From an uncultured virus (IMG/VR IMGVR_UViG_3300047409_000475) (taxonomy: Duplodnaviria; Heunggongvirae; Uroviricota; Caudoviricetes): DNA of 64,000 bases. A program made the translations under genes and the position numbers. The stretch lies in the IMG/VR virus record IMGVR_UViG_3300047409_000475; one strand, written 5' to 3'. The notes beneath the pieces were generated by a model. It saw only the letters and a program-made list of their open reading frames with translations, was not told the DNA's origin and did not search any database. Positions 19,882 to 37,936 of the stretch are shown one piece after another. Positions within the stretch are counted from its first letter, which is position 1. Each line of letters starts with the position of its first letter.

Positions 19882-20354
19882 GCGCTTGGACGTTTGAATG
19901 GGACGACGCCGCCATCGAGCGCCTGAAGCGCCTGAAGGCTGACGGCCACTCGGCGGTCGATATCGCCAAGCTGCTTGGCGTCAGCAAGAACGCCGTCATC
20001 GGCAAGCTGTATCGCCTGAAGACCGTCGCCGGGCCCGTGCAGGTGGCGCGCACGAAGCGATCCTACCAAGCCAAGCCGCAGCCAAGCCGGAAGCAGAAGC
20101 AGGGCGCGGACAGGTGGTTCAAGATGGAGCCGCCGCCAGCGCCCAAGCCGCAGCAGCCCAATGTGCCGTTCACGCGCTCGATCCTTGAACTTGTGCACGG
20201 TCAGTGCAAGTGGCCAGAGGGTGACCGCGATTTCCTCTTCTGTGGTGAGCCGCAGGCAACGGGGCACGTGTATTGTGCCGCGCATGTCGAGCGTGCCTAC
20301 AACAAACCAAGGCATGGTCTGAGTGCCCATTTCATACGAACAACTCAAGGATAG
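19878..20354 (+). CDS. gcrA: GcrA-like transcription regulator
   Basis: WDDAAIERLKRL...SAVDIA...SKNAVIGKLYRL; CKWPEGD...FCG...YCAAH. Confidence 0.9.
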   Translation: MSAWTFEWDDAAIERLKRLKADGHSAVDIAKLLGVSKNAVIGKLYRLKTVAGPVQVARTKRSYQAKPQPSRKQKQGADRWFKMEPPPAPKPQQPNVPFTRSILELVHGQCKWPEGDRDFLFCGEPQATGHVYCAAHVERAYNKPRHGLSAHFIRTTQG

Positions 20355-21837
20355 CCGCAGCTTCGAGCTCTACAACGAGTGCGCGCGCTCCGAGGCAAGA
20401 GTAGACTTCTACTCGTTCCGCTGCCACATGCGCGAGGACATGAAGATCGGCTGGTGGTTGAAGGAGATATGCGACCACCTGCAGCGCTTCTACCTGCGCT
20501 TTATGAATGGTGAGCGGCCGAAGATGGTGCTGATGGCACCGCCGCAGCACGGCAAGACGACCATCGTCACCGACTTCATCGCGTGGGTGGCGGGCAAGAA
20601 CCCCTCGCTCAGGTGCCTGTTCACGTCCTACTCCGACGATCTCGGGCAGGGCGTCAACGTCAACTTGCAGCGCATGATGGACAGCGACAAATACAAGCAG
20701 GTGTTCGGGCCGCGCCTGCCAAGCTTCGGCCGCTCCATTGCAGGCATGCGCAACAACAACCTGCTGGAATACATGGGCGGGACTGGATCGTTCAAGGGCA
20801 GCTTCCGCAATACTACCGTGAACGGACAGGTTACTGGTAAGGGGCTGGACTTCGGCTTCATCGACGATCCGATCAAGGGCAGGCGTGAAGCAAACTCCAC
20901 GACCGTGCGCGACGCCACGTGGGCGTGGCTCACCGACGATTTCTTCACCCGCTTCTCCGACCACGCCGCGCTGCTGATGACGCTGACCCGCTGGCACCTC
21001 GACGATCCGGCCGGGCGCTTCCTGCAGAAATTTCCTGAGACGGAGGTGCTCGACTACCCGGCCATTGCCACCAAGGATGAGCTCCACCGCCGCAAGGGCG
21101 AGGCGCTGTTCCCCGAGTTCAAGTCGCTGGAGTTCCTCGAAGAGCGGCGGCGCGGCCTGAGCCAAGCCTCGTGGGTGTCGCTCTACCAGCAGAGCCCGAT
21201 CATCGCTGGCGGCGGCATGTTCCCCGTCGAGAAGTTCGCGGTGGTGAACGCGGTGCCGAAGAACGTCATCAAGTGGGTGCGCTACTGGGACAAGGCGGCC
21301 ACCGAGATGGGCGGCGCATACACGGCGGGCGTCAAGATGGGCAAGCTGCCGGACGGCGGCTTCATCGTCTCCGATGTGCGGCGCAAGCAATTGTCGGCAC
21401 TCGAACGCGAGCGCATGATCCTGCAGACGGCGCAGATGGACCGGCAGGAGAGCGGCCCCAACGTCTTGACCGTGGTTGAGCAGGAGCCGGGCTCAGGCGG
21501 CAAGGAGAGCGCCGAGCGCAGCGTGCGGATGCTCGCGGGCTACAAGGCAGAGGCCGACAAGGTCACCGACGCCAAGCACATCCGCGCCGATCCCTACGCC
21601 GCGCAAGTTCAGGCGGGCAACGTGTCGATCCTCTCGGCGATGTGGAACAAGGACTTTTTGAACGAACACGAGACGTTCCCGAATGGCACCTACGTCGATG
21701 TGGTGGACGCCGCCGCAGGCGCGTTCACCAAGCTGACGCTGGGCAGCACCTATGACAGCAGCATGCGGTGGGCGACGGGTGACGTTCCCGACAATGTTTT
21801 GGCACAGCAGCTAAACGGAGGCGCACGGCCATGGTAG
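20323..21837 (+). CDS. terL: Terminase large subunit
   Basis: MAPPQHGKT, IDDPIKG, TRWHLDD, LYQQSP, YWDKAA, DVVDA. Confidence 0.95.
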   Translation: MPISYEQLKDSRSFELYNECARSEARVDFYSFRCHMREDMKIGWWLKEICDHLQRFYLRFMNGERPKMVLMAPPQHGKTTIVTDFIAWVAGKNPSLRCLFTSYSDDLGQGVNVNLQRMMDSDKYKQVFGPRLPSFGRSIAGMRNNNLLEYMGGTGSFKGSFRNTTVNGQVTGKGLDFGFIDDPIKGRREANSTTVRDATWAWLTDDFFTRFSDHAALLMTLTRWHLDDPAGRFLQKFPETEVLDYPAIATKDELHRRKGEALFPEFKSLEFLEERRRGLSQASWVSLYQQSPIIAGGGMFPVEKFAVVNAVPKNVIKWVRYWDKAATEMGGAYTAGVKMGKLPDGGFIVSDVRRKQLSALERERMILQTAQMDRQESGPNVLTVVEQEPGSGGKESAERSVRMLAGYKAEADKVTDAKHIRADPYAAQVQAGNVSILSAMWNKDFLNEHETFPNGTYVDVVDAAAGAFTKLTLGSTYDSSMRWATGDVPDNVLAQQLNGGARPW

Positions 21838-24336: not shown

Positions 24337-24418
24337 GGCGCTGGTCTTCATGGCTGGCGTGATCGTCGGCTTCCTCGTCTCACTGGCGTGGCGCTGCGGC
24401 GACGATGGCGAGGTGTGA
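24329..24418 (+). CDS. Small single-TM protein
   Basis: MFEALVFMAGVIVGFLVSLAWRCGDDGEV. Confidence 0.4.
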   Translation: MFEALVFMAGVIVGFLVSLAWRCGDDGEV

Positions 24419-24463: not shown

Positions 24464-27400
24464 ATGGGCGCACCGTTCGACGTTGCTGCGATCAAGGACA
24501 GCTTGATCAACCTCATGGCAGGCTTCGGCGTGCCGGGCCGCGACAAGGCGGCCAGCGGCGCGTCGTTCTGGCAGTTCACCCCGCTGTCGCAGTATGAGCT
24601 CGAAAGCGCCTACCGGGCCAACTGGATCGCTCGCAAGCTGATCGACATCCCGGCGCAGGACGCCACGCGCGCGTGGCGTGCGTGGCAGGCCGACACCAAT
24701 GTGGTGGAGCTGCTCGAAGAGGAGGAGACGCGCCTCGACGTGCAGGTGGTGCTGAAGAACGCCCTGATCATGTCGCGCCTCTACGGCGGCGCAGCCATCC
24801 TGCTCGGCGTCAAGGGCGCGAGCAACAACACGCCGCTCGACTACGAGAGCGTCGAGAAGGGCGGCCTTGAGTTCATCGCCGCCGTCTCGCGCTGGGCGCT
24901 CGGCACGGGTCCGCTGGTCAAAGACCCGATGGACCCGATGTATGGCAAGCCCGAGTATTTCACCCGCAACATGGACATCGGCCAGAACCAGACGGCGGCC
25001 GAGTTCCAGATACACCCGAGCCGCGTCATCATGCTGAAGGGCATGAACATGCCGGACCCGGTGATGCAGGGAGAAATCTGGGGCGACAGCGTGCTGCAGA
25101 ATGTGCAGGACGCGGTGCAGTCGGCCACCCTCGTCACCCAGTCCATCGCCACGCTGGTGACCGAGAGCAAGTTCGACATTATCAAAATCCCTGACCTGTC
25201 GCAGAACATCGCCACCGCCGAGTATCAGAACCGGCTCACGGCGAGGTTTGTGTATGCCAACTCGGTGAAGAGCGTGATCAACACGCTGCTGCTCGACAAG
25301 GAAGAGGAGTGGGAGCGCATCAATGCGAATTTCACGCAACTCCCCGATGTCCTGCAGATGTATCTCCTCATCGCCTCCGGTGCAGCAGACATCCCCGCTA
25401 CACGTATGCTCGGGCAGTCCCCTGCTGGACTACAGTCTACTGGAGAGAGTGATGTCCGTAACTACTACGACCGAATTAACAGCGATCAAACCAACGTATT
25501 GTCTCCCGCCCTTGCTGCTCTTGACGATGTATTGATCCGCTCTGCATTGGGCGACCGCGATCCTAGTCTGTATTATATCTGGAACCCGCTGTGGCAGATG
25601 CCCGCCACCGAGAAGGCGGCGGTCGCCAAGCAGAAGGCGGAAGCCTTCAACGTGGACATCATGGCCGGTGCTGTCGATGCCGAGGCGCTGCGCATCGGGC
25701 GGCAGAACCAGTTGATCGAGGACGGCACCTACCCCGGCCTTGAGCAGGCGCTGGAGCAACAAGACCAACTCGACATGGAGAGCATGCTGTCTCCCGAGGA
25801 GCAGGATGCGCAAGCGCAGGCCGAGATGGAGAAGCAGGCGGCGCTGGCTGGCCCCGGTCAACCGGGACAGCCGGGCCAGCCGGGCCAGCCGAATGGTGGC
25901 GGCAATCCGTTCCAGCGTGGCAAGGCACCGCAGAAGAAGGGCAACCCGTTCCAGAAGAAGGACAGCAGACCACTTGCCGTCGGCCGCCGCCTCAAGAAGG
26001 CACGCAGCACCCCGATCTTCAAGCGCCGCGCCGAATGGCTCGCCTCTGTGGCGCGCGATTACAACGAGTGCCATGACCCGGATACCGGCCTGTTCTGCGG
26101 CGAGGGTGGCACCAGCTACAGCGGCCCCTCGTCTGGATCGAGCGATCCGTATCAGTCCGAGGGCGCGACCGGCTTTGGTGCCGAGATCATGTCGGCGGCG
26201 CACGGCCGCCTGCACGGTGGCGAGCACGGCGTGTTCCGCGCTGAAGACCAAGGCATGGCCGACAAGCTGGAACGCGATATGGGGCGCGTGCTGGGCGAGC
26301 TCGACCGCTACAAGGAGAAGCCGGACAGCACGCGCATCAAGAACCTGATGGTCGAGCACCGCGACCTGATGAAGCAGATACGCCGCCTGCGCCTCGATCC
26401 GGGTGGCCTGCAAGGCTTCGGCAAGCCGGGCGGGCACCGCGACGTGGTGATCATTGGCGGCGGTCCCGCAGGCCTCAACGCGCTGGTCAATGCCGCCTAC
26501 GAGGGCATGGACGCCACGCTGCTGGAGGGCGGCTCGGACATTGGCGGCCAGTCACGCACCAGCGGCGGCATCAAGAACGTCGCAGGCACCAAATACGGGA
26601 CGCGTGGCAAGGCCTACTTCGAACGCCTCGCCAACCTCGCCACCGCCAACGGCGGCGAGATACGCACGCAGTCGAAGGTCCGCAACCTCACCTACGATCC
26701 GACTACCGGCCTGAAGACCATCCACCTCGACAACGGTGAGACGATCACTGCCCGCAACGTGGTGATCGCGACCGGCGTGCAGTTCAAGGTGATCAACTTC
26801 AAGGGCTCGGAGGGCACTGGCGTGCACTTCGGCGGCCACAACGATCTGCTCAACGAGGCGAAGGCGGCAGGCCGGGCGCAGAACCGCCCCGGCCACGTCG
26901 TCATCGTCGGCGGCTCGAATGGCGCGGCGCAGGCCGCGATCAGCGCCTCCAACGCCGGGCTGAAGGTCACCATCCTGTCGCGCTCCCCCATTGGCGGCGA
27001 GACGGGCAAGATGAGTGCCGATCCGTTGAAGGTCATTCGCGCCAAGCAGCGCACCAACATCAACGTGGTCGAGGGCGACGAGATCGCCGAGCTACAGCGT
27101 GACGCCGATGGCAAGCCGGTGGCCATCATCACCAAGGGCGGCAAGCGGCTGCCCGCCGACAGCGTCGGGCTGTATCTTGGACAGGCACCCGACACATCGT
27201 GGCTGCCCGACAGCATCGAGCGCGACGAGAAGGGTTACATCAAGGCTGATGTCGATCTGCGCTCCACCATGCCCGGCGTGTTCGTTCCCGGCGATGCACG
27301 CTCCGATCCGCCCGGCCGCGTGCAACGCTCCGGTGCCGAGGGCCAGACCTCCGTCGTCGGCGTGTTCAAATACCAGACCCAGCAGGCGCTCGCCTACGCA

Positions 27401-28810
27401 CGCGGCGACAACTCTCCGCACACCTCCGCATGGACGCGCCGCATCGCGGTGCCCGAGGAGGAGCAAGCGAAGCTCAACCAAGAGAACGAGCGGCTGGCGA
27501 GCGAGAACGAGAGCCTGCGGGCGCAGCTTGCCGAGCTCCGCAGGCGGCACGGTGATGCCGCGCGTGGGCGCTCGATACTCGGCGGCACAGACCCGCCCGA
27601 CAAGCCCGGCAAGATGACCTTCGCCGACTGGGATCAGTCGGTGGACATGCTGCACGCGCTCGACGCCGAAGACCCCTACATCACGCGCGGCATCGAGTAT
27701 GCGGCGGGTCAGCGGCTTGACCCGCTCAGCGGCCACGTCGATTACGAGGCTGGCGAGAGCTACAGCATCGATTACAGCCCCGACCAGCCGCGTGGGCAGC
27801 CAGACAACGCTGGCCAGTGGGGTCCGGGCGGTGGTGGATCGTCTGCCAAGTCGAAGCGCAGCGAGCCGTCGCAGAGCGCCAAGAGCAGCTACCGCGAGGT
27901 GCTGCAGACGCGCAAGAAGATCGGCAAGACACCGGGCGAGCGCGAGCACACCTACCAGAGCCTGCTGGAGAGCGGCGAGGGCAAGCACCCCGGCCACGGC
28001 TACTCGGGGCGCGCCGTCGAGGACGAGGACGGCATCATCCACACCGACGACGTGACGGATGTCGTGCGCGCGCTCTACGAGGGCCGCAAGGTCAACCTCT
28101 GCTCCGAGGACAAGGTCGCCATCGCCATCGACAAGGTGGGCAAGGTGGCCAGCCGCATGGCCAAGTCGAAGGGTGAGGGCAAGGACCGCACCTTCGATCT
28201 GTGCAACGTCACGGTCGAGGGCACCAACTTGTTCTGCGCCGAGAGCAAGGGCATCCCGCGTGTGAAGATGCCGCAGTTGAAGGGTGTGCCGAAGCCCAAC
28301 AGCCCCGCTTCGAAGCTGCCCGCCAACAAGAAGGGCGAGGTCGATCTCACGCAGGCGTTCCGCGATCACCTCGAAGAGATCGGCCTGACCATCGACGACA
28401 CCGACGTGCGTGCCGACCACCTGAAGGCCAGCCAGAACGAACTGAACGGTGCAAAGATCGCCGGTATGGCGAGCGCGATCCGCGCGGGCAAGATCGGTGA
28501 GGAGCGCATCTTCGTCAGCGACGACAACTACATCGTGGACGGTCACCACCGCTGGGCCGCCAACGTCGCGGTGGACTACGACGACAACAAGTCCGGCGAC
28601 ATCAAGATGCCGGTGGCGCGCATCAACGCCTCGATCCTTGAGCTCTTGGAGATCAGCAACACCTTCGCACGCGAGATGGGCATCCCGCAGGCGGGCGTCG
28701 GCGCAATGGTGCCGAAGGAAGAGCAGAAGCAGACAACCAAGAAGGATGCGGTGACGCACGGCTCCCACCGCCCTTTCGCTTCAACCCTTACACCGGCATC
28801 CGACTGGTAG
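24464..28810 (+). CDS. DUF1073-type portal fused to TrxB-like and ParB-like domains
   Basis: Portal motifs (YRANWIARKLIDIPAQD, RLYGG, IHPSRVI, GQSPAGL..TGESD, WNPLWQ) in aa ~1-440; GGGPAG, IATG, VFVPGD; IVDGHHRWAA. Confidence 0.9.
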   Translation: MGAPFDVAAIKDSLINLMAGFGVPGRDKAASGASFWQFTPLSQYELESAYRANWIARKLIDIPAQDATRAWRAWQADTNVVELLEEEETRLDVQVVLKNALIMSRLYGGAAILLGVKGASNNTPLDYESVEKGGLEFIAAVSRWALGTGPLVKDPMDPMYGKPEYFTRNMDIGQNQTAAEFQIHPSRVIMLKGMNMPDPVMQGEIWGDSVLQNVQDAVQSATLVTQSIATLVTESKFDIIKIPDLSQNIATAEYQNRLTARFVYANSVKSVINTLLLDKEEEWERINANFTQLPDVLQMYLLIASGAADIPATRMLGQSPAGLQSTGESDVRNYYDRINSDQTNVLSPALAALDDVLIRSALGDRDPSLYYIWNPLWQMPATEKAAVAKQKAEAFNVDIMAGAVDAEALRIGRQNQLIEDGTYPGLEQALEQQDQLDMESMLSPEEQDAQAQAEMEKQAALAGPGQPGQPGQPGQPNGGGNPFQRGKAPQKKGNPFQKKDSRPLAVGRRLKKARSTPIFKRRAEWLASVARDYNECHDPDTGLFCGEGGTSYSGPSSGSSDPYQSEGATGFGAEIMSAAHGRLHGGEHGVFRAEDQGMADKLERDMGRVLGELDRYKEKPDSTRIKNLMVEHRDLMKQIRRLRLDPGGLQGFGKPGGHRDVVIIGGGPAGLNALVNAAYEGMDATLLEGGSDIGGQSRTSGGIKNVAGTKYGTRGKAYFERLANLATANGGEIRTQSKVRNLTYDPTTGLKTIHLDNGETITARNVVIATGVQFKVINFKGSEGTGVHFGGHNDLLNEAKAAGRAQNRPGHVVIVGGSNGAAQAAISASNAGLKVTILSRSPIGGETGKMSADPLKVIRAKQRTNINVVEGDEIAELQRDADGKPVAIITKGGKRLPADSVGLYLGQAPDTSWLPDSIERDEKGYIKADVDLRSTMPGVFVPGDARSDPPGRVQRSGAEGQTSVVGVFKYQTQQALAYARGDNSPHTSAWTRRIAVPEEEQAKLNQENERLASENESLRAQLAELRRRHGDAARGRSILGGTDPPDKPGKMTFADWDQSVDMLHALDAEDPYITRGIEYAAGQRLDPLSGHVDYEAGESYSIDYSPDQPRGQPDNAGQWGPGGGGSSAKSKRSEPSQSAKSSYREVLQTRKKIGKTPGEREHTYQSLLESGEGKHPGHGYSGRAVEDEDGIIHTDDVTDVVRALYEGRKVNLCSEDKVAIAIDKVGKVASRMAKSKGEGKDRTFDLCNVTVEGTNLFCAESKGIPRVKMPQLKGVPKPNSPASKLPANKKGEVDLTQAFRDHLEEIGLTIDDTDVRADHLKASQNELNGAKIAGMASAIRAGKIGEERIFVSDDNYIVDGHHRWAANVAVDYDDNKSGDIKMPVARINASILELLEISNTFAREMGIPQAGVGAMVPKEEQKQTTKKDAVTHGSHRPFASTLTPASDW

Positions 28811-31800
28811 GAGACGAGTGGAACGAGGCCGACCACCCGCGCGGTCAACCCAACAACGCCGGGCAGTTCGGGCCCGGTGGCGGCGGCTCCAGCAGTAAAT
28901 CCGGTAAATCCGGTAAATCCGGCGGCAGCACCGGATTTGTCTCCCCGAATATCCACGACCTGCAGATCGAGCAGGCGGCCAACGCCATCACCTCATCAGC
29001 CCGTCAGAAGCTGCTCAACGAGGCCAGCCGTGAAATAAATTCGGCGCTTGGGCTGAAGGTCAACCAAGCGCCGGTCGTGGGCGCGTGGTCAGATGGTGCC
29101 GAGAACAGCATCATGCTCTCGTGGTCCGGCGAGAACCCCGCCGTCGAGCGCGCCGCCTTGGCCATGGAAGGCTACATCGCCGACCAGAAATCGGTGCTCT
29201 ACTTCCAGCCCGACACGCAGGCCGAGGAGTTCATCGCACGCTTCACCGCCGAGGGCGATGTCGTTGCCGTGCATGAAGATTTGTTAAAGCGCGGCCTTGC
29301 CTTCCACACCTTGCGCCCCACATCCGAGGGCACCGTGGTGTATGTCTACGGTCAGGACCAAGAGACACTCGACAAGGTAGGCGATGCGGCCAAGGCGCAC
29401 AACGCCGAGATGTCGTGGACGCCGGGCAAGGGAGAGTTCATTGGCACAAAGCTCGAAAACGGAGAAGCCACCGACCGAGAGCAAAGGGACGACGCCCGGC
29501 GCGTCTACGAAGACGAAATTAGTCGGGCCGCCGGGGGCGAAGTTGGACATGTCTGGGAGGACATACGGGATCGTTGGACCCGCCGACTTCAACAATCCCA
29601 AGATCAAGAAGTAGGCGACTTCAACCCCAACCACGATCCCGATACCGGCGAGTTCAGCAGCGGCGAAGGCGGCGGTGGTGGCGGCGACTTCACGGTCGCC
29701 TCGCCCGCGCAGCGCGTTCAATACAAGGCCAACCGCGCGGGCAAGATCGCCGAGTATGACCCGCGCTTTTTCACGCACCGGCCGCTGGTGCTGGAGTATG
29801 AGGGCAAGCCGCTGGACATGGGGCGCGACGAGCTCGTGCGAACCGCTCCCTACAATGCCGACCTGTCCAACGTGCCCACCTCGCCCGACATCATCTACCG
29901 TGGCATGTCGGCGGGCGAGTTCGACGCCATCCAGAAGACCGGCGAGATACGCGGCAGCGGCGAATACAATATCGGTGAGCAGCAGCGGGGCCTGACCTAC
30001 TACGGCGCAGACCCGCAGATCGCGCAGTCCTACGCCAGCAGCTTCGCGCCGCGCAAATACAAGCCAAGCTGGGATCGACCGGCCTACGTGGTCGCCATCC
30101 GCCGCCCGCCCCCGGAGCTCATCCGGCAAGTGTCGGGTGTCGGTGAGAACGAGGTGGGCGTGGTTGGTGCCGTGCCTGCCGACGACATCGTGGCGGTCTA
30201 CCGTGGCGACGTCATTGCCTACGTGCCCGAGGAGCACTACGCGGGCGGCAGCACCTCAGCCATGGTCACGCTGAACTGGAGCCAGCAGGCTCTGCCACCG
30301 CGCAAGGGCGGCGACGGTTGGAACCGCGCCACGGGCACGCGGCTGGAGAGCGAGTATGATGCCTCGCGCGCGGCTGTCGCCGCCACCGTGCACGACCTTG
30401 GCGTGGCGGAACCGGAGCAACTCGACCCGCTGTCGCAGCGCTCCAACAACGACAGCAGCACGCACCAGTTCGCCACGGCGCTGGTCGAGAAGCACGCCGC
30501 CAAGGTCATGTCGGAGCGGCTCGCACGCCCGATAGACCCGGCCGCAGTGCACGCCATGGGCAGCCGCCTGTGGAGTGACTGGCTCGACAGCACCGCACTC
30601 ACCAAGGGTGGGAAGCTGTTGCAGCTTGCCGCCGCCGAGGAATTGGGCGGCCGGTTCGATGAGCGGCGGATGATCGGATCGAAGCTGCAGGAATTGGTCG
30701 AGGCCGCCGACAAGGAGTTTGCCGATGTCGGCGGCTACGCGGGCGTCAAGGCCTACGTGCGCGGCATGTGGGAGACGACGCAATACCTGCTGGAGCGATC
30801 CGGCATGAACGATGTCGGCGTCTACCGCTCGATCTGGCAGCGGCCGGAGGAGCGTGGTCGCTCGGAGGAGTTTGCACACGGGGCACAGCGCTGGACGCGG
30901 CTGCCCGATACGCTGATCCGGCGCAACGGCATGGCATCGTTCTCGGCGGCGTCGAGCATGGCATCTTCGTGGGGGCAGGGCGACCGCACCGTGATCCGCG
31001 CCAAGGTGCCGCGCACCGCCATCGTGTCGATCCCCGCCTACGGCGGCAACGACACCGACGAGATGGAGCTCACCGTGGCGGGGACGGCGTGGCATGGCTG
31101 GGACGCGTGGCTGCGCTCGGCACCCGACTTCAACACTGTGCCGCTGGTCGAGCCGCCCGACAAGATCAAGGACGAGGCAGCGCCGCCTGCGGCATCGACA
31201 CTGCCTTCCGCCTCAGCCGGGGCACCGGCCGAGAACCAGTCGCTGCAGCCGGTCAACGATCCGAAATATCGCGCCATCGATCTGCAGCGCCTCGACACCG
31301 ACTGGCTGCGGCCCGCTGGCCGCGCCCGCGCCCGCCTCGCGCGCGACGATGTCTCAGGCTCCTTCGCCAGCAAGCAGGGCTCTTGGCTGATGGACCCGGA
31401 GACGGGCGAGCTCATCGGCTCCTCCAGCGAGGAGGGCGGTGGCGGCGGTGAGAGCGCAGCGCCAGCGCGTGCAGCTACACTGCCGAAGGCGGCGAAGACC
31501 AAGGCAGCGAAGGCCACGACCAGTCCGGCGGCGTCACCTCCGAAGAAGATCGAAGGCGTCAAGGCCGACAGCCACCCGGCCAAGATCAGCCCGAGCTACA
31601 CCAAGACCAACAAGCGCACGGTGAACAGCGAGGACACCTACGTCCCGACCGGCCTCGCCACCATGGCCAAGCACGAGCACAGCTACAGCCACAACATCGC
31701 CTTGCACGCCAACGCCGCCCATTATCCGGGCCTGCGCGCCGAGGATACCGAAGGCACCAACGCCGTGGTGGCGCGCAACATCGTTGACCGCATGAAGAGC

Positions 31801-32934
31801 AATCTGCGCTACCTGTGGACCAAGGCCACCGCTGCGCAGAAGACGGCGGCCAACTGGTATCGCGGCGCGAACAGCAGGATACGTGCCAAGGCCACGCAGT
31901 ATAAACTCGACAGCGCCAGCGTGGCGGGCGTCTATGCGGCGCTCAGCCCGACCAAGGACTGGGAAGAGAACATCTACCTCGCCGACCGTGTGCTCGACAT
32001 CTACCACACCAAGCAGCATTTCGAGTGGACGCAGGAGATGTCGGACACCGCTGAGCGCATCTGGCTGAAGGAGAGCAGCGAGAAGGACAGCCCCGAGAGG
32101 CAGGCCAGCATCGTCGCCAGTAACGCGGTGAAGACGGCGCAATGGCAGCGCCTGCGTGCGGCCAAGACGTTGTCGGCGCTGACCAGCCACCGCGACATGG
32201 CGATGTGGATACGCACCTACGACGAGACTTACGGCGACCCGGAGCAGGAGATCGTCTCGGGTGTGCTGCACGGGCGCGGTTACCGTGAGTTCCTGCCCGA
32301 CGGCACGCTCGGCGGCTTCCGCATGACCCAGCCGCAAAGCGGCAATCCCGAGAAGGCACTGGTGACGTGGCAGTCGATGACCATGACCGCCAACGCCATC
32401 GAAGCGATGCTGTCGGGTGGTGACCGCCACATCATCTCCGCTGCCGTGGGTGAGCGGCACAAGGTCAGGAATTTCTACAACAACCTCGTCGATCCCGATG
32501 GCACCGACGGCGACGTGACCATCGACAGCCACGCAGTGGGCGGCGCGTGGATGATGCCGACATCCGGCGTCGAGGTGGCCAAGGGGCACGCACTCGCCAC
32601 CTCGCCCGGTGAGGGTGCGCAGAACGCCAAGAACGGACCATCGGAAGGCATCTGGGGCACCTACGGCTTCTACGCCGACGCCTACCGTGAACTGGCCGGG
32701 GAGCTCCACATGCTGCCCGACGAACTGCAGGCGGTGCTGTGGGTGGTGAAGCGCGACGCCTTTGTTGACATGGCCAAGCAAGCACAGGTCGATATCCGCT
32801 CCATGTGGCAAAGCTTCCACAACGGTGACCGTTCGCTCGCGGAGACACACGACGCGGTGTGGCGTATCGTCGAGGAGGATCAGCAGCGCAAGCGTGACGC
32901 CGCTGCTGCCCGCTCACAGAGGACTGCAGAATGA
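28777..32934 (+). CDS. Continuation of the portal polyprotein in the -1 frame: unknown domain, two ART-like domains, HhH-glycosylase-like domain
   Basis: Frame open from 28642 with no ATG/GTG/TTG before 29077, yet it encodes a tag at 28813 that nearly matches the tag at 27770. Confidence 0.8.
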   Translation, partial: RFNPYTGIRLVGDEWNEADHPRGQPNNAGQFGPGGGGSSSKSGKSGKSGGSTGFVSPNIHDLQIEQAANAITSSARQKLLNEASREINSALGLKVNQAPVVGAWSDGAENSIMLSWSGENPAVERAALAMEGYIADQKSVLYFQPDTQAEEFIARFTAEGDVVAVHEDLLKRGLAFHTLRPTSEGTVVYVYGQDQETLDKVGDAAKAHNAEMSWTPGKGEFIGTKLENGEATDREQRDDARRVYEDEISRAAGGEVGHVWEDIRDRWTRRLQQSQDQEVGDFNPNHDPDTGEFSSGEGGGGGGDFTVASPAQRVQYKANRAGKIAEYDPRFFTHRPLVLEYEGKPLDMGRDELVRTAPYNADLSNVPTSPDIIYRGMSAGEFDAIQKTGEIRGSGEYNIGEQQRGLTYYGADPQIAQSYASSFAPRKYKPSWDRPAYVVAIRRPPPELIRQVSGVGENEVGVVGAVPADDIVAVYRGDVIAYVPEEHYAGGSTSAMVTLNWSQQALPPRKGGDGWNRATGTRLESEYDASRAAVAATVHDLGVAEPEQLDPLSQRSNNDSSTHQFATALVEKHAAKVMSERLARPIDPAAVHAMGSRLWSDWLDSTALTKGGKLLQLAAAEELGGRFDERRMIGSKLQELVEAADKEFADVGGYAGVKAYVRGMWETTQYLLERSGMNDVGVYRSIWQRPEERGRSEEFAHGAQRWTRLPDTLIRRNGMASFSAASSMASSWGQGDRTVIRAKVPRTAIVSIPAYGGNDTDEMELTVAGTAWHGWDAWLRSAPDFNTVPLVEPPDKIKDEAAPPAASTLPSASAGAPAENQSLQPVNDPKYRAIDLQRLDTDWLRPAGRARARLARDDVSGSFASKQGSWLMDPETGELIGSSSEEGGGGGESAAPARAATLPKAAKTKAAKATTSPAASPPKKIEGVKADSHPAKISPSYTKTNKRTVNSEDTYVPTGLATMAKHEHSYSHNIALHANAAHYPGLRAEDTEGTNAVVARNIVDRMKSNLRYLWTKATAAQKTAANWYRGANSRIRAKATQYKLDSASVAGVYAALSPTKDWEENIYLADRVLDIYHTKQHFEWTQEMSDTAERIWLKESSEKDSPERQASIVASNAVKTAQWQRLRAAKTLSALTSHRDMAMWIRTYDETYGDPEQEIVSGVLHGRGYREFLPDGTLGGFRMTQPQSGNPEKALVTWQSMTMTANAIEAMLSGGDRHIISAAVGERHKVRNFYNNLVDPDGTDGDVTIDSHAVGGAWMMPTSGVEVAKGHALATSPGEGAQNAKNGPSEGIWGTYGFYADAYRELAGELHMLPDELQAVLWVVKRDAFVDMAKQAQVDIRSMWQSFHNGDRSLAETHDAVWRIVEEDQQRKRDAAAARSQRTAE

Positions 32935-33147: not shown

Positions 33148-33223
33148 CGCCGACGCGGCATGTGTCGGCGGGGGACCGCCTGCCGTGCCTAACCCCCACT
33201 CCGGGCGGTCCCCACCCACTTTT
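33148..33223 (+). terminator. Double hairpin (terminator or leader)
   Basis: CGCCGAC/GTCGGCG and GGGGACCGCC/GGCGGTCCCC stems, short T run. Confidence 0.5.
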
Positions 33224-33243
33224 GCAACGAAAGGATTGAACTA

Positions 33244-33705
33244 ATGCCAACGACCATCCCGTTCGAAGACGACATCTTGAAGCTCATCTTCCAAGCCGTC
33301 GCCATCCAAGGCATCGCCATCAACCACACGACCACGCCGCTCGCGTCCTACTACGTGTCGCTGTGCAAGGCGGACCCGATCCTGCCGACCAATCAGGTGC
33401 AGGACCAGTTGACCAGCGAGGTCTTCTACACCGGCTACGCGCGCGTGCTGGTGCCGCGCAATCCGCTCGGCTGGAAGGTGGGCGGCGGCGTGGTGACAGC
33501 GGTCAACGTCATCGCCTTCGCCATCCCCACCGACATCGTGCAACCGTTCTACGCCACGCACTTCGCCATCGGGGGAGCGGCCAGCGGAGCGGGCAAGCTT
33601 ATTGCGTCGGGCAAGCTGGTGCCGCCGATCCAGATCGCCAACGGCGTCGAGCCGCGCATCGACAACAAGTCGCCCGCCGCGCGCATGCCCGACGACTGGG
33701 TTTGA
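33244..33705 (+). CDS. Virion-associated beta protein
   Basis: YVSL..ADP, EV.YTGYARV, THFAIG pattern. Confidence 0.6.
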   Translation: MPTTIPFEDDILKLIFQAVAIQGIAINHTTTPLASYYVSLCKADPILPTNQVQDQLTSEVFYTGYARVLVPRNPLGWKVGGGVVTAVNVIAFAIPTDIVQPFYATHFAIGGAASGAGKLIASGKLVPPIQIANGVEPRIDNKSPAARMPDDWV

Positions 33706-33706
33706 G

Positions 33707-34651
33707 TTGTTCCCTGCGTCGGCACCACATGCGCGTCCGCGCCGCATCCTCAGCGATGCGGCGAAGAAGCGTGACCCGACGCAGTCGAACGACATCCGGC
33801 GGCGCATCTCCACCAATCTGCGGCAAGGGCTTGCTGCATGGCGCAGCCAGATATACGCGGCCGTCGTCGAGGCTGACCAGTTCGGCTACGTCTACGGCGA
33901 CGTGGACCGTGGCGACGCCGAGGCGCTGATCGAACGCCTCGACACCCTGTTGCACCGGGGAGCCGAGTTCGCCTTCACCCCTGCCGCCGACCAGATGGAC
34001 GTGATGCTGGGCACCGCCTACGCGCGCGGCGTGCGCAAGGCGGGGCAGGAGGTGCAGCCCGTGATGCCGCTCACCAGCAGCACCTTCGAACTGGCGCAGC
34101 GGGCGCGTGACGACCTTGAGAACATGCTGGAGGACCGCATCGCAGAGTGCTTGCGCGTCCTGCGCGAGGACGAGGATACGGCTGCCGCCGCCACCTCTTC
34201 GCGCTACCTGCTCTACACCGCGCTGCTGTTGCCGACCGTGATCCGGCCGCTGGTCAGCCGCCTCAACGCGCTTTCGACTACCAACGTTACTCGGGCATAC
34301 AACACCGGCAAGCTTGATGCCTACGAGGTGCTCGGCATCGACGAGGTGGGCGTGCAGGCCGAGAGCCAGCCTTCGTCCGGCAAGCAACTCTCCGAGTTGC
34401 TCGCTGAGCATGTGCGTGAGCAAGCGGCCGAGCAGTTGCTACACGAGCATCTTCCGAGCGAGGAGTTTTCCGAGCCGGTGCTGCCAGAGGGACAGCGCTT
34501 CCCAGAGTTCTATACGGTCGAGACGGTAGGGGATGACAGGGTGTGCGACATATGCGAGGGTTACGAGGGCAACACCTATACGCTGGCAGAAGCGCGGGAG
34601 TTGATCCCTGCACATCCTAACTGCAGATGCAGCATCGTTCCGGTGGCGTGA
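33707..34651 (+). CDS. MuF/SPP1 gp7-like minor head protein (start uncertain)
   Basis: TVGDDRVCDIC...IPAHPNCRC. Confidence 0.8.
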   Translation: MFPASAPHARPRRILSDAAKKRDPTQSNDIRRRISTNLRQGLAAWRSQIYAAVVEADQFGYVYGDVDRGDAEALIERLDTLLHRGAEFAFTPAADQMDVMLGTAYARGVRKAGQEVQPVMPLTSSTFELAQRARDDLENMLEDRIAECLRVLREDEDTAAAATSSRYLLYTALLLPTVIRPLVSRLNALSTTNVTRAYNTGKLDAYEVLGIDEVGVQAESQPSSGKQLSELLAEHVREQAAEQLLHEHLPSEEFSEPVLPEGQRFPEFYTVETVGDDRVCDICEGYEGNTYTLAEARELIPAHPNCRCSIVPVA

Positions 34652-34936: not shown

Positions 34937-35124
34937 GCAAACGATGGGTGTGGGGCCTGTTTGAGGTCGCCACTGCACTACTGTTCATCGCTGCGATTGT
35001 CTTCGTGACCGTCATGGTCACGATCTCTTTCTCCAACTGAACTGCTCGACATCATTGGGGTGAAGTGCCGTTCCGCGCGGGACGGCGAAGCCATGCCTAC
35101 CCACCAACAAGGAGGGCCCGCTTG

Positions 35125-36444
35125 ATGGCCAATAACTACGATGCACCCGACGTGTGCAGCGAAGACAGTCCCGACTACGACGAGGAAGCCTGCGCTGCGC
35201 GGCGCTCCGAGGACGCCTTCCCGCCAAAGGAGGAGAAAGCCTCGAACGAGGAGGCCGATCCCTGCGACGAGAGCTCCGACGCCTACGACGAGGAGGAGTG
35301 CAAGCGCCTGAAATCGGCGGCGAAGACCGGCGACAGCATGGCGTGGGTGGAGGATGCCGTCATCGACCGTGGCAACATGCGGATGACTGCCAACGGCTAC
35401 CTCGTTGCACAGGCGCGCGTCGCCCGCACCGGCATCCAGATTTACCACGGCGACGAGATCGGTGATCCGCGTCCCACCGTGCGCGTCTATCGGCCCGAGA
35501 AGACGGTGTTCGCACGCGACAGCCTGCACAGCTTTGGTCACAAGCCGGTGACGCTTGGGCATCCCCCGGAGATGGTCAACGCCCACAACTGGCGCGACTA
35601 CGCCGTCGGCCACGTGGACGGCGAGATCGTGCGCGACGGCGACATGGTCAAGGTGCCGATGATGATCACCGACGCCACCGCTATCGAGGCCATCAACCGG
35701 GGCGCGTCGCAGCTATCGGTTGGCTACGACGCACGGCTGGAGATCGTCGATGGCAAGACCCCGGACGGTGAAGCCTACGACGCCATCCAGCACGACATCC
35801 GGGTCAACCACATTGCTCTCACGCCAACGGCGCGCGGCGGCCCGCAACTGCGTCTCGGCGACAAAGGACAGAAAGGACAGAAAATGGAACGAGCCAAGCT
35901 TAATGACGAGCGCACCGTCACCATCGACGGCATCGAGTTGAAGCTGCCCGAGCCCAACGCCAGCATCGTGCAGCGCGGCCTGAAGAAGCTGCGCGATCAG
36001 GTGATCTCTCTCACCTCCGAGCGTGACACGCTGAGCGGCAAGGTCGCTGCCATGTCGAAGCAGGTGAAGGACAGCACCTTCTCCGACGCCGAGCTCGACG
36101 CGCGCGTGGCGCAGCGGCAGGCGCTGGTGTCACAGGCACAGAAGGTGCTCGGCCAGTCATGGCAGCCGGACGGCAAGCCCACCAATGACATCCGTCGCGA
36201 GGTGGTCGCCAGCAGGCTCGGCGACGACGTGGCGAAGGCGATGACCGACGCCGCCATCGAGGGCGCGTTCACGGCGGTCACCGCCACCGATGCATCGAGT
36301 GCACCACGCGAGCTCGCACAAGCGCTTGCCAAGCCCGGCTACGGCACCAGCAGCAAGCCCAACGCTGAACAGGCGTGGGAGGAGCGCGGCAAGCTGATGC
36401 GCGAAGCGTGGCGTAGCAACAACGGCTCGATGGTGAAGCAGTAA
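35125..36444 (+). CDS. DUF2213 prohead protease/scaffold
   Basis: ARTGIQIY, VYRP, PVTLGHP, QLSVGY, NHIAL...ARGG; coiled-coil C-terminus. Confidence 0.9.
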   Translation: MANNYDAPDVCSEDSPDYDEEACAARRSEDAFPPKEEKASNEEADPCDESSDAYDEEECKRLKSAAKTGDSMAWVEDAVIDRGNMRMTANGYLVAQARVARTGIQIYHGDEIGDPRPTVRVYRPEKTVFARDSLHSFGHKPVTLGHPPEMVNAHNWRDYAVGHVDGEIVRDGDMVKVPMMITDATAIEAINRGASQLSVGYDARLEIVDGKTPDGEAYDAIQHDIRVNHIALTPTARGGPQLRLGDKGQKGQKMERAKLNDERTVTIDGIELKLPEPNASIVQRGLKKLRDQVISLTSERDTLSGKVAAMSKQVKDSTFSDAELDARVAQRQALVSQAQKVLGQSWQPDGKPTNDIRREVVASRLGDDVAKAMTDAAIEGAFTAVTATDASSAPRELAQALAKPGYGTSSKPNAEQAWEERGKLMREAWRSNNGSMVKQ

Positions 36445-36940: not shown

Positions 36941-36997
36941 CTACAAAGTAAAACGGGGTGGTGTCAACCAGTTATTCAGGATAAGGAGAAGTTAAGC

Positions 36998-37936
36998 ATG
37001 CCCCGTCAATTCGTGGATGCACAGGCTGCGATGGCCTTTATGGTCAACCAAGCCGCCTATATTGAGAGCGAGGTCTACCGCACTCAGTATCCAGAAATCC
37101 AATACCCGACGCTCGTCCCCATCGACGAGAGCGCCCCCGAGTGGACCAAGTCCGTCACCTTCTACTCCATCGACCGGGTGGGTGAGGCGCAGTGGTTCCA
37201 CCACATGTCAACCGACATCCGGCTGGCTGATGTGCAGCGCTCGGCCTACGAACAGGGCATCGAGATGGCGGCCATCGGGTATCGCTACACGCTCGAAGAG
37301 ATCGGGCAGGCGATGATGATCGGCTGGAACCTCACCACCGAGCGGGCGGCTGCGGCCGTGCGTGCGGCCGAGGAGTTCACCGAGCGCGTCGCCATGGTAG
37401 GCGATGCCACCAAAGGCTGGACCGGCATCATCAACGCTCTCGGCGTCACCGCCACCACGGCGCAGGCCGGTGTGGGCGGCATCACGTGGGTGACGAAGAC
37501 CGCCGATGAAATCCTGCGCGACGTGAACAACGCGCTGGCCGACATCTACACCACTTCGAACACCATCGAGACGGCGAACACCATCCTGTTGCCGATCAAC
37601 CAATACTCGTTGATCAGCACCAAGCGGCTCTCCGACAGCCTCGACATGACGATCATGGAGTGGCTCACACGCTACAATGTTTACACTGCCCAAACGGGCC
37701 AGCCGCTCACCATCCGCGCAGTTCGTCAGCTTGCGACTGCAGGCGCTGGCGGCACGGCGCGCATGATGGTCTACCGGCGCGACCCGACGGTGTTGAAGAT
37801 GCACATCCCGATGCGGCATCGCTTCCTGCCGGTCTGGCAGACGGGCCCGATAACTTTTGACATCCCCGGAATTTTCCGTCTGGGCGGTGCCGAGGTGCGG
37901 CGTCCGGGCGCGGTGCGCTACGTGGACGGCATCTAA
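36998..37936 (+). CDS. Major capsid protein (DUF2184-like)
   Basis: IESEVYRTQYPEIQY, YTLEEI, RLGGAEVRRP, YVDGI; TAAGGAG RBS. Confidence 0.92.
   Translation: MPRQFVDAQAAMAFMVNQAAYIESEVYRTQYPEIQYPTLVPIDESAPEWTKSVTFYSIDRVGEAQWFHHMSTDIRLADVQRSAYEQGIEMAAIGYRYTLEEIGQAMMIGWNLTTERAAAAVRAAEEFTERVAMVGDATKGWTGIINALGVTATTAQAGVGGITWVTKTADEILRDVNNALADIYTTSNTIETANTILLPINQYSLISTKRLSDSLDMTIMEWLTRYNVYTAQTGQPLTIRAVRQLATAGAGGTARMMVYRRDPTVLKMHIPMRHRFLPVWQTGPITFDIPGIFRLGGAEVRRPGAVRYVDGI

Follow-up and report, generated by a model that had tools for sequence, protein, structure and literature searches.

In a 64,000-nucleotide (nt) stretch of DNA from an uncultured soil phage (IMG/VR virus record IMGVR_UViG_3300047409_000475; 64% G+C; this whole stretch is called the window below), the gene for a portal polyvalent protein (open reading frame 1, ORF1) stops in frame 0 at a TAG at 28808-10, and a very long open frame (ORF2) continues in the -1 register. 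We favour, with a probability of roughly 0.6, a model whereby a -1 ribosomal frameshift at the heptamer C_CCT_TTC joins ORF1 and ORF2, because such a slip accounts for the heptamer itself, for its conservation and for the codon usage of the ORF1 tail. Re-reading of the sequence bore out the layout from which the original prediction of this frameshift had started: the position of the portal stop; the -1 frame, open from 28642 to 32934, with a GTG at 29077 as its earliest ATG, GTG or TTG; a copy of a recurrent peptide tag (tag 3) in that frame from 28813; and the heptamer at 28771-28777 in X_XXY_YYZ register (...CGC CCT TTC, read as R P F).

The frame break is present in the DNA. A second IMG/VR contig (IMGVR_UViG_3300045284_000326; 42,436 nt) spans the site and aligns to the window over 5,603 nt without gaps, the sole mismatch being at 24384. 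Seventeen soil-metagenome runs from 11 studies, none of them RNA, carry at least part of the stretch, and we compared the Logan contigs of four (X3, X5, X6 and X7), so that the break was judged from contigs and not from raw reads. A 2,727-nt contig of X3, which may be the source sample, covered 28300-29037 without differences, as did a 151-nt piece of X5 over 28760-28910. X6, which comes from another study and year, gave a 451-nt contig over 28385-28835 with no insertions or deletions and three substitutions, all of them at synonymous third positions of ORF1; X7 had no contig over 28606-28911 and was uninformative. The alternative of a sequencing error was therefore not borne out, as five assemblies (the window, the IMG/VR contig, X3, X5 and X6) all lack an indel.

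ORF1 (24464-28810, plus strand, as are all features of the window given here) encodes 1,448 amino acids (aa). It contains a Phage_portal_3 domain (aa 44-396, 24593-25651; PF06381, E = 2e-102; phrog_146), a pyridine-nucleotide disulphide oxidoreductase domain of the flavin oxidoreductase kind (aa 660-960, 26441-27343; Pyr_redox_2, PF07992, E = 3e-34) and a ParB-like cargo domain with a DGHHRW motif (aa ~1240-1434, 28181-28765; phrog_2859, E = 2e-20). The last of these had no match in a Pfam search and resembles the DdrB-like ParB of polyvalent proteins, as that family is described in the parts of PMC5512222 consulted. A linker island follows in frame 0 (KKDAVTHGSHRPF, 28739-28777), and the protein then ends ...HRPFASTLTPASDW. 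The -1 frame of ORF2 spans 28642-32934, of which 28777-32934 (1,385 codons plus a stop) is the part proposed to be translated. It encodes tag 3 (DEWNEADHPRGQPNNAGQFGPGGGG, 28813-28887), then a cargo domain that starts GFVSPN and is here called FVSPN (28933-29580; no Pfam family, present at 62 IMG/VR loci), and, near the C-terminus, DUF7178, whose best-scoring stretch is 31783-32022 (PF23802, E = 6e-22).

The whole product of ORF2 cannot arise from a start of its own. The first canonical start, GTG 29077-29079, where the gene caller began the protein P0003, lies inside the FVSPN domain, 145 codons into the frame; this is unique among the listed open frames of the window, since every other has its start within 58 codons. 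Both tag 3 and the initial 48 codons of the conserved FVSPN domain lie upstream of this GTG in the -1 frame. Among FVSPN relatives, 60 of 61 non-self IMG/VR loci have an in-frame start 5' of the domain and the remaining one runs off its contig; the domain is usually preceded by a tag in the same frame, and many relatives carry the very tag of the window in frame. Over all the loci compared we counted 148 tags, and, one spurious minus-strand match aside, the only start-less one was that of the window and its twin contig. ORF2 nevertheless remains open for 1,430 codons with the conserved residues of its FVSPN domain kept; the off-frames of these genes contain 19-30 stops per ~1,400 codons, the longest open run being 263 codons.

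ORF1 and ORF2 belong together. The tag DEWNEADHPRGQPNNAGQFGPGGGG of the -1 frame is a copy of the ORF1 tag DQPRGQPDNAGQWGPGGGG. Moreover, relatives combine the parts in one frame: a single ORF at locus L013 has both a ParB-like domain, at 41% identity, and an FVSPN domain, at 39% over 221 aa, while at L028, L054 and L067 a single ORF contains portal and FVSPN, with DUF7178 as well in L054 and L067. The region thus has a start-less -1 ORF for a conserved protein, and a frame-0 stop ten codons after the heptamer.

Six close relatives (P0123, P0243, P0125, P0126, P0004 and P0244) were compared as proteins from a protein collection. Three of them, P0123 (79% identity over the last 271 aa), P0125 (75%) and P0126 (74%), are portal-ParB proteins that end with the frame-0 tail, sharing the ending ...KKDAV(T/A)HG(S/P)HxPF...W*. 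The C-terminus is ...KKDAVTHGSHRPFASTLTPASDW in the window, ...KKDAVTHGSHHPFSLTLTPASDW in P0123, ...KKDAVTHGSHRPFGSTPLPASDW in P0125 and ...KKDAVAHGPHIPFAPAPHW in P0126, so that a tryptophan followed directly by the stop is common to four lineages. These shared endings indicate that TAG 28808 is the conserved natural end of the ORF1 protein and not an accident. Within the linker island, KKDA and PF are invariant in all five aligned sequences, and four relatives hold frame 0 through KKDAVTHGSHRPF, past 28747. The suggestion that one G had been lost near 28747 is thus refuted, since frame 0 is correct through RPF in these relatives. The same observation rules out a slip at the upstream tetramers G_GGC (28678 and 28693) and C_CCG (28684).

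Where the switch lies is narrowed further by P0244, a continuous portal fusion of 1,631 aa. P0244 and its cluster mate P0128 (72%) read without interruption ...KKDAASPRPFRGPLSRLIDYNQCHDPETGEF..., which matches the layout RPF|R...tag expected at the slip junction. Taken together, the shared tail and stop and the continuous form in P0244 place the switch between the Phe codon (28775-77) and 28813. P0128 (1,125 aa; in the same 90% cluster as P0244 but on another contig) begins MKTRPIF, just past the portal part, so the portal in that contig was either called separately or is broken at another (R)PIF linker.

A second phage appears to share the two-frame arrangement. P0005 and P0243 are 76% identical to ORF2 over the shared FVSPN part, and both begin MMSWSG; in the alignment this start falls within the FVSPN domain, at residue 158 of the window's -1 frame. 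As this start is seen on four contigs, it is not a contig-edge effect. P0243 is intact for 1,183 aa, and the longest contig is one of 33,880 nt both for it and for the tail-ended P0123. A phage diverged by ~21-24% in protein therefore probably combines, as the window does, a tail-ended ORF1 with a start-less ORF2, as far as protein comparison can tell. Conservation in relatives, which had been put forward as a check, was accordingly seen for the tail and stop in three close relatives, while the two-frame arrangement is suggested in one. In a protein search aimed at it, no ORF downstream of P0125 was found. Parsimony back-translation of the relatives' tails, made without DNA, gave four changes for frame -1 and seven for frame 0, and was not used as evidence.

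The heptamer stands out within the gene. C_CCT_TTC (28771-28777) is the sole in-frame X_XXY_YYZ in the 2,823 codons of ORF1 and ORF2. Given how often such heptamers occur in the window in any frame, one or more would fall in register within the 56 overlapping codons with a probability of 4.3% (1.6% if Y must be A or T). The heptamer relies on the rare codon CCT, which accounts for 7.5% of the 561 Pro codons counted and for one of 20 Pro-Phe pairs. The heptamer is in the frame-0 register, and both tRNAs are able to re-pair in -1. It belongs to the motif class H_HH.U_UU.Y, which is among the most efficient in E. coli according to the portion of Sharma et al. 2014 (PMC4066793) consulted. Transcriptional slippage was ruled out as an alternative at this site, since the only runs are CCC and TTT.

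Codon usage points to the same position. The likelihood of a switch from frame 0 to frame -1 peaks at 28771 (33.8), compared with 28.1 at 28747 and 25.0 at 28804. The overlap that follows the heptamer (28778-28810) reads ASTLTPASDW and TAG in frame 0 and RFNPYTGIRLVG in frame -1, with codon scores of -3.99 and +3.28, respectively. Five of the eight degenerate frame-0 codons are rare and end in A or T (GCT 8.8%, TCA 6.6%, CTT 5.9%, ACA 6.4% and GCA 11.9%). Of the candidate positions, the heptamer is thus the one with the best support, and a switch there would give isoforms of 1,448 and 2,823 aa.

The same heptamer recurs in other portal fusions. C_CCT_TTC or C_CCT_TTT encodes the PF of the linker before the tag in the L040/L051/L058 group, L059, L170, L174 and L177, so that the heptamer is conserved at the nucleotide level in five other lineage groups, all with the cargo in frame. 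The linkers read EVAKDSA[VAI]PF in the first group (L040/L042, L051/L053 and L058), HDGRPF in L059 (C_CCT_TTT), AAKDGVVPF in L170, GKGAVVPF in L174 and AGDSVLPF in L177; those of L040, L051, L058, L170 and L174 have KD..PF motifs like that of the window. Phage_portal_3 was confirmed in all four of the heptamer lineages tested. The flanks are unalike between groups (18-51% ungapped identity), and the residue preceding Pro varies (V, A, I, L or R), its codon ending in C in every case. CCT is a rare codon in L040 (1/45 Pro codons), L058 (2/42), L170 (3/49) and L174 (1/13), and less rare in L051 (10/44), L059 (8/65) and L177 (2/15).

Scans of IMG/VR gave a similar picture. CCT-TTY at 12-42 nt before TGGAAYGARGCNGAYCA was found at seven loci, three of them spurious and four genuine lineages (the window's twin, L170's contig, L174 and L177); the same scan with the common codon CCG returned a single, spurious locus. 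A codon-neutral scan (CCN-TTY, 39 nt, GARTGG...) returned the window's twin and L170's contig only. The spacing from CCTTTC to GAGTGG is exactly one base shorter in the window than in L170. This pattern suggests that the heptamer is under selection at the nucleotide level. The other heptamer lineages read the tag in frame 0, and their -1 frame meets a stop 4-16 codons past the heptamer; slippage in them would thus yield a portal lacking cargo, opposite to the situation in the window.

How might the two frames be joined? We propose that ORF1 and ORF2 are a single recoded gene. The majority of ribosomes would read frame 0 to TAG 28808 and produce the 1,448-aa portal-oxidoreductase-ParB protein with its conserved tail. 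A minority would slip back one base at C_CCU_UUC (28771-77), tRNA-Pro moving from CCU to CCC and tRNA-Phe from UUC to UUU. The last frame-0 codon would be TTC (Phe) and the next CGC (28777-79), from which 1,385 codons would be read, so that the slip product would have 1,438 + 1,385 = 2,823 aa and comprise the portal, the tag, FVSPN and the DUF7178 cargo. Its junction would be ...HRPF|RFNPYTGIRLVGDEWNEADHPRG..., with the junction peptide ...HRPFRFNPYTGIR (RFNPYTGIR). The slip fraction, which would set the number of portal subunits with extra cargo, probably amounts to at most a few per cent, because no stimulator was detectable. Of the slip originally predicted, both the site and the two product lengths are supported by these results; slippage by ribosomes, its efficiency and its stoichiometric purpose are what we infer from the sequence.

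It is plausible that frameshifting limits the dose of cargo. The prediction had spoken of a toxic ART cargo, and this was not confirmed: the sole family recognised in the whole of ORF2 by Pfam at E <= 0.01 was DUF7178, and a search of four segments gave no ART family (ART-PolyVal, PF18760) at E <= 0.1. PF18760 does occur in the relatives L038, L047 and L084. As a more tentative extension, C_CCU_UUY at the KD..PF linker may be a conserved recoding switch of Phage_portal_3 cargo fusions that operates in either of two configurations. Where the cargo lies in frame 0, as it does in most lineages, a slip would end translation 4-16 codons on and leave the portal without cargo; in the window's clade, where the portal ends in frame 0, a slip would add the 1,385-aa cargo. 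In either configuration, the slip frequency would set how many of the twelve portal subunits take cargo into the capsid.

Several observations weigh against this model, and the first concern stimulatory elements. The weak downstream hairpin noted at the outset (ACCGG/CTGGT) does exist, at 28786-28812 (-6.8 kcal/mol), 8 nt 3' of the heptamer and including the TAG, but it is no better than background and is not credible as a stimulator. Compared with shuffled sequences, four folds of the downstream region gave z-scores of +0.47, +0.64, -0.21 and +0.43, and downstream structure is as strong or stronger at 56-93% of positions across these ORFs. Upstream, GGAGG is absent in the window and there is only an AAGGA, 24 nt away. 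We thus found no stimulator in the window, pseudoknots not having been formally searched for, and the long form may consequently be rare; the best E. coli motifs without stimulators shift at ~0.3% in the parts of PMC4066793 consulted.

Other points against the model concern the comparisons. For the nearest relatives the comparison covered proteins, so that in them a heptamer and a downstream ORF in frame -1 are no more than presumed. P0004 has its own Met and an extra N-terminal domain of ~110 aa, and its longest contig is as long as that of P0126 (86,239 nt), so that the P0126/P0004 lineage possibly has a separate downstream gene. The -1 overlap peptide RFNPYTGIRLVG had no clear counterpart: a search of representatives with the -1 junction peptide gave 244 matches, nearly all of which begin at the tag (query residues 11-17), and in the few extending beyond it no conserved equivalent was seen. 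The tail codon scores come from a small sample of ten to twelve codons, and a frame-0 peptide rich in Ala, Ser, Thr and Pro by itself places C at the third positions of the -1 frame. The pre-tag codon scan covered only CCT and CCG among the four Pro codons; L170, L174 and L177 were found by patterns containing CCT, and only the L040 group and L059 were found blind to the heptamer. In L007, L011, L015, L041 and L071, where a pre-tag PF occurs without the KD motif, it is encoded by other codons.

Additionally, the start-less -1 arrangement was seen in none of 78 non-self ParB relatives and none of 61 FVSPN relatives in IMG/VR. The ParB relatives there number 79 loci in all, the best non-self one having 63% identity. 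Among isolated phages, blastn gave no match and tblastn gave 335 records, all below 60% identity and at most 32% among the matches listed; with identities so low, there is no close cultured relative. A metagenome scan with the ORF2 N-terminus found six loci, all matching the tag only, and a scan of GTDB genomes with the ParB alignment gave 59 pattern matches, none of which was confirmed.

In the relatives of the in-frame configuration, the surroundings of the heptamer differ from those in the window. Downstream folds in seven relatives reached z <= -1.7 in two (L040, -1.73; L174, -2.10) and lay between -0.95 and +0.11 in the others, which is only suggestive of structure. An 11-bp hairpin starts 3 nt after the heptamer in L040 (4866-4892) and in L051 and L058 (4860-4886 in both) and is kept via G-U/U-G changes; its z-scores are -1.73, -0.90 and +0.11, respectively, and the window has no counterpart. 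Several in-frame portal fusions have GGAGG (often AAGGAGGT) 19 nt 5' of C_CCT_TTC, the cassettes lying at 4826-4900 in L040, 4820-4895 in L051 and L058, 1470-1510 in L170, and, in L174 and L177, on the minus strand (~300 in reverse-complement numbering). The GGAGG is kept with the rare Val codon GTA in L040 (1/63 Val codons) and L174 (1/17), and in L174 and L177 the -1 stop is formed by rare codons inside the tag (AAT-GAG and GCT-GAC). With GGAGG, heptamer and a near -1 stop, these in-frame fusions look like dnaX-style truncating frameshift cassettes.

The strongest rival is an inherited lesion, either a one-base loss after the Phe codon (e.g. TTC-CGC to TTC-GC) or an imprecise module swap, after which ORF2 would be silent, or made by accidental slippage only, and decaying. 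In its favour are the continuous form in P0244 and in many more distant relatives, the window's lack of a stimulator and the absence of the arrangement from the other IMG/VR loci examined. Nevertheless we consider it unlikely. The stop and tail are common to relatives that are merely 74-79% identical, so the break appears old, yet ORF2 is still open for 1,430 codons with its conserved domain residues intact, and a second lineage (P0243) is apparently start-less and intact over 1,183 aa. A lesion would also have had to fall exactly at a rare, conserved slippery heptamer.

Ribosomes might alternatively hop at the stop, with peptidyl-tRNA moving from UGG 28805, which is followed by UAG, to UGG 28819, or from GAC 28802 to GAC 28813. 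The codon pairs are matched at +14 and +11, the stop abuts the take-off UGG, and the W-stop is kept in four lineages. The products, ...PASDW-NEADHPRG or ...PASD-EWNEADHPRG (junction peptides ...PASDWNEADHPR or ...PASDEWNEADHPR), would both restore a good tag, similar to GASDEWNEADHPR of L005 and ADWNEAAHPRG of L041, and the tail PF..ASDW is like the in-frame pre-tag linkers PFGASDEF (PFGASDEF-NEADHPR) and PFAHDAW. However, hopping accounts for neither the heptamer nor its conservation in other lineages and does not fit the atypical frame-0 tail codons (five of eight rare; -3.99 against +3.28 for frame -1). By these scores frame 0 is also not the sole coding frame up to the take-off site, no significant structure was found there, and very few precedents are known for programmed bypassing of the T4 gene 60 type (PMC5009743, consulted in part); we regard a hop as distinctly improbable. 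The sequence at 28802-28821 reads GAC TGG TAG GAG AC GAG TGG, with an AGGAG (28809-13) between the D-W-stop of frame 0 and the D-E-W of frame -1; AGGAG occurs 19 times in these 8.5 kb and is thus unremarkable here.

Less probable still is that ORF2 is expressed separately, from a non-canonical start (CTG 28804 or ATC 28798) or by reinitiation after TAG 28808. Stand-alone genes composed of a short leader, a tag and FVSPN do exist in L025, L069, L072 and L077, and possibly as P0004, and an AGGAG overlaps the stop codon. Against this, there is no in-frame ATG, GTG or TTG before 29077; CTG and ATC have no Shine-Dalgarno (SD) sequence; the codons 5-9 nt past the AGGAG (TGG, AAC and GAG) are not near-cognate starts; and GTG 28818, the sole one nearby, would open a stretch of just ~26 codons in the +1 frame. 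By codon usage, moreover, the -1 frame is coding from ~28777, which is 5' of both candidate starts. Finally, the possibility that sequencing or assembly dropped a base (including the lost G near 28747), for which no evidence was found, is practically excluded, as far as contigs show, by identical bases in five assemblies, one of which has nearby substitutions, by relatives that stay in frame 0 through KKDAVTHGSHRPF with the same stop position, and by a window in which no other broken gene was seen among the listed open frames.

The preferred -1 slip at C_CCT_TTC has clear parallels. Programmed -1 frameshifting in tailed phages is known from tail chaperones and a few capsid proteins. The full shift site of T7 gene 10 is G_GUU_UUC, which has the same U_UUC end as the window's heptamer, and the SD-like element of E. 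coli dnaX lies ~10 nt upstream of its shift site. Like the window, T7 gene 10A/10B and lambda G/GT have a structural gene with a 3' slippery site, at which a minority -1 shift gives a C-terminal extension at a fixed ratio. They differ in that the window's gene is a portal, in that its extension would be ~1,385 aa of cargo domains instead of a short capsid or chaperone extension, and in that no stimulator was found. In the sections of PMC5009743 consulted, the ratio of G to GT is ~30:1 and T7 gene 10 is listed with G_GU as X_XX.

The tau/gamma switch of dnaX resembles instead the L040 group, L059, L170, L174 and L177, where a slip would reach a stop 4-16 codons on and truncate the product as in gamma; its SD-like upstream element is shared with the in-frame relatives (GGAGG). 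The window is reversed with respect to dnaX, frame 0 giving the short form and -1 the long form; its heptamer is C_CCU_UUC and not A_AAA_AAG, and the GGAGG found 19 nt upstream in relatives is absent from it. 'Savior' compensated indels, as treated in the parts of Atkins et al. 2016 (PMC5009743) consulted, are similar in that a frame-breaking indel is tolerated and a shift-prone run restores some product, but here the frame-0 product is conserved and presumably functional, and the slippery site is kept in lineages without any indel. Polyvalent proteins, as portrayed in the text of Iyer et al. 2017 (PMC5512222) consulted, are likewise multi-domain effectors among head genes, with portal/MuF fusions and DdrB-like ParB; the word 'frameshift' does not occur in that text, and neither the two-frame split nor the conserved linker heptamer is described in it. 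The word 'portal' is likewise absent from the 300,000 characters of PMC5009743 searched, and our literature search, which covered its sources in part, found no report of frameshifting for portal or polyvalent cargo proteins.

Frameshifting itself is textbook; what would be new here is a portal-cargo junction as the frameshift site and a heptamer used in two configurations. If correct, the model would explain how very large effector polyproteins can be tethered to a dodecameric portal without overloading all of its subunits, and would give ribosomal frameshifting a new role in virion assembly and effector delivery. It would also provide a signature for finding more cases, KD..PF encoded with C_CCT_TTC ahead of a WNEADHPR tag, which could help to annotate giant ORFs of metagenomic phages that look 'split' or 'startless'.

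The surroundings are those of a polyvalent protein, with the portal, Pyr_redox_2, ParB-like and DUF7178 domains lying among head genes: the terminase at 20323-21834, a DUF2213 protein at 35065-36441 and the major capsid protein at 36941-37933. The recurrent tag ([DE]W/Y/F-N/D-E-x-x-H-P/D-R/P...G-x-F/W plus a Gly run) stands between all cargo domains of 24464-32934 and of the relatives. Five copies occur in ORF1 and ORF2, often preceded by (R/T)P(I)F and basic residues, and the tag may serve in cleavage, as a signal for packaging or as a joint for recombination. Directly after tag 3, at 28888-28914, a 9-nt unit (AAATCCGGT) is repeated three times in tandem to encode SKSGKSGKSG; this could be a slippage-prone linker of variable length. 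Further downstream in the window, two plus-strand open frames (33193-33705 and 33497-34651) overlap in differing frames. One of the pair is Gp80-like (E = 4e-7); the other, whose first start (33602) comes 35 codons into the frame, has a weak C-terminal Mu F-like match below the Pfam cut-off. This pair may be a second frame junction or a plain gene overlap.

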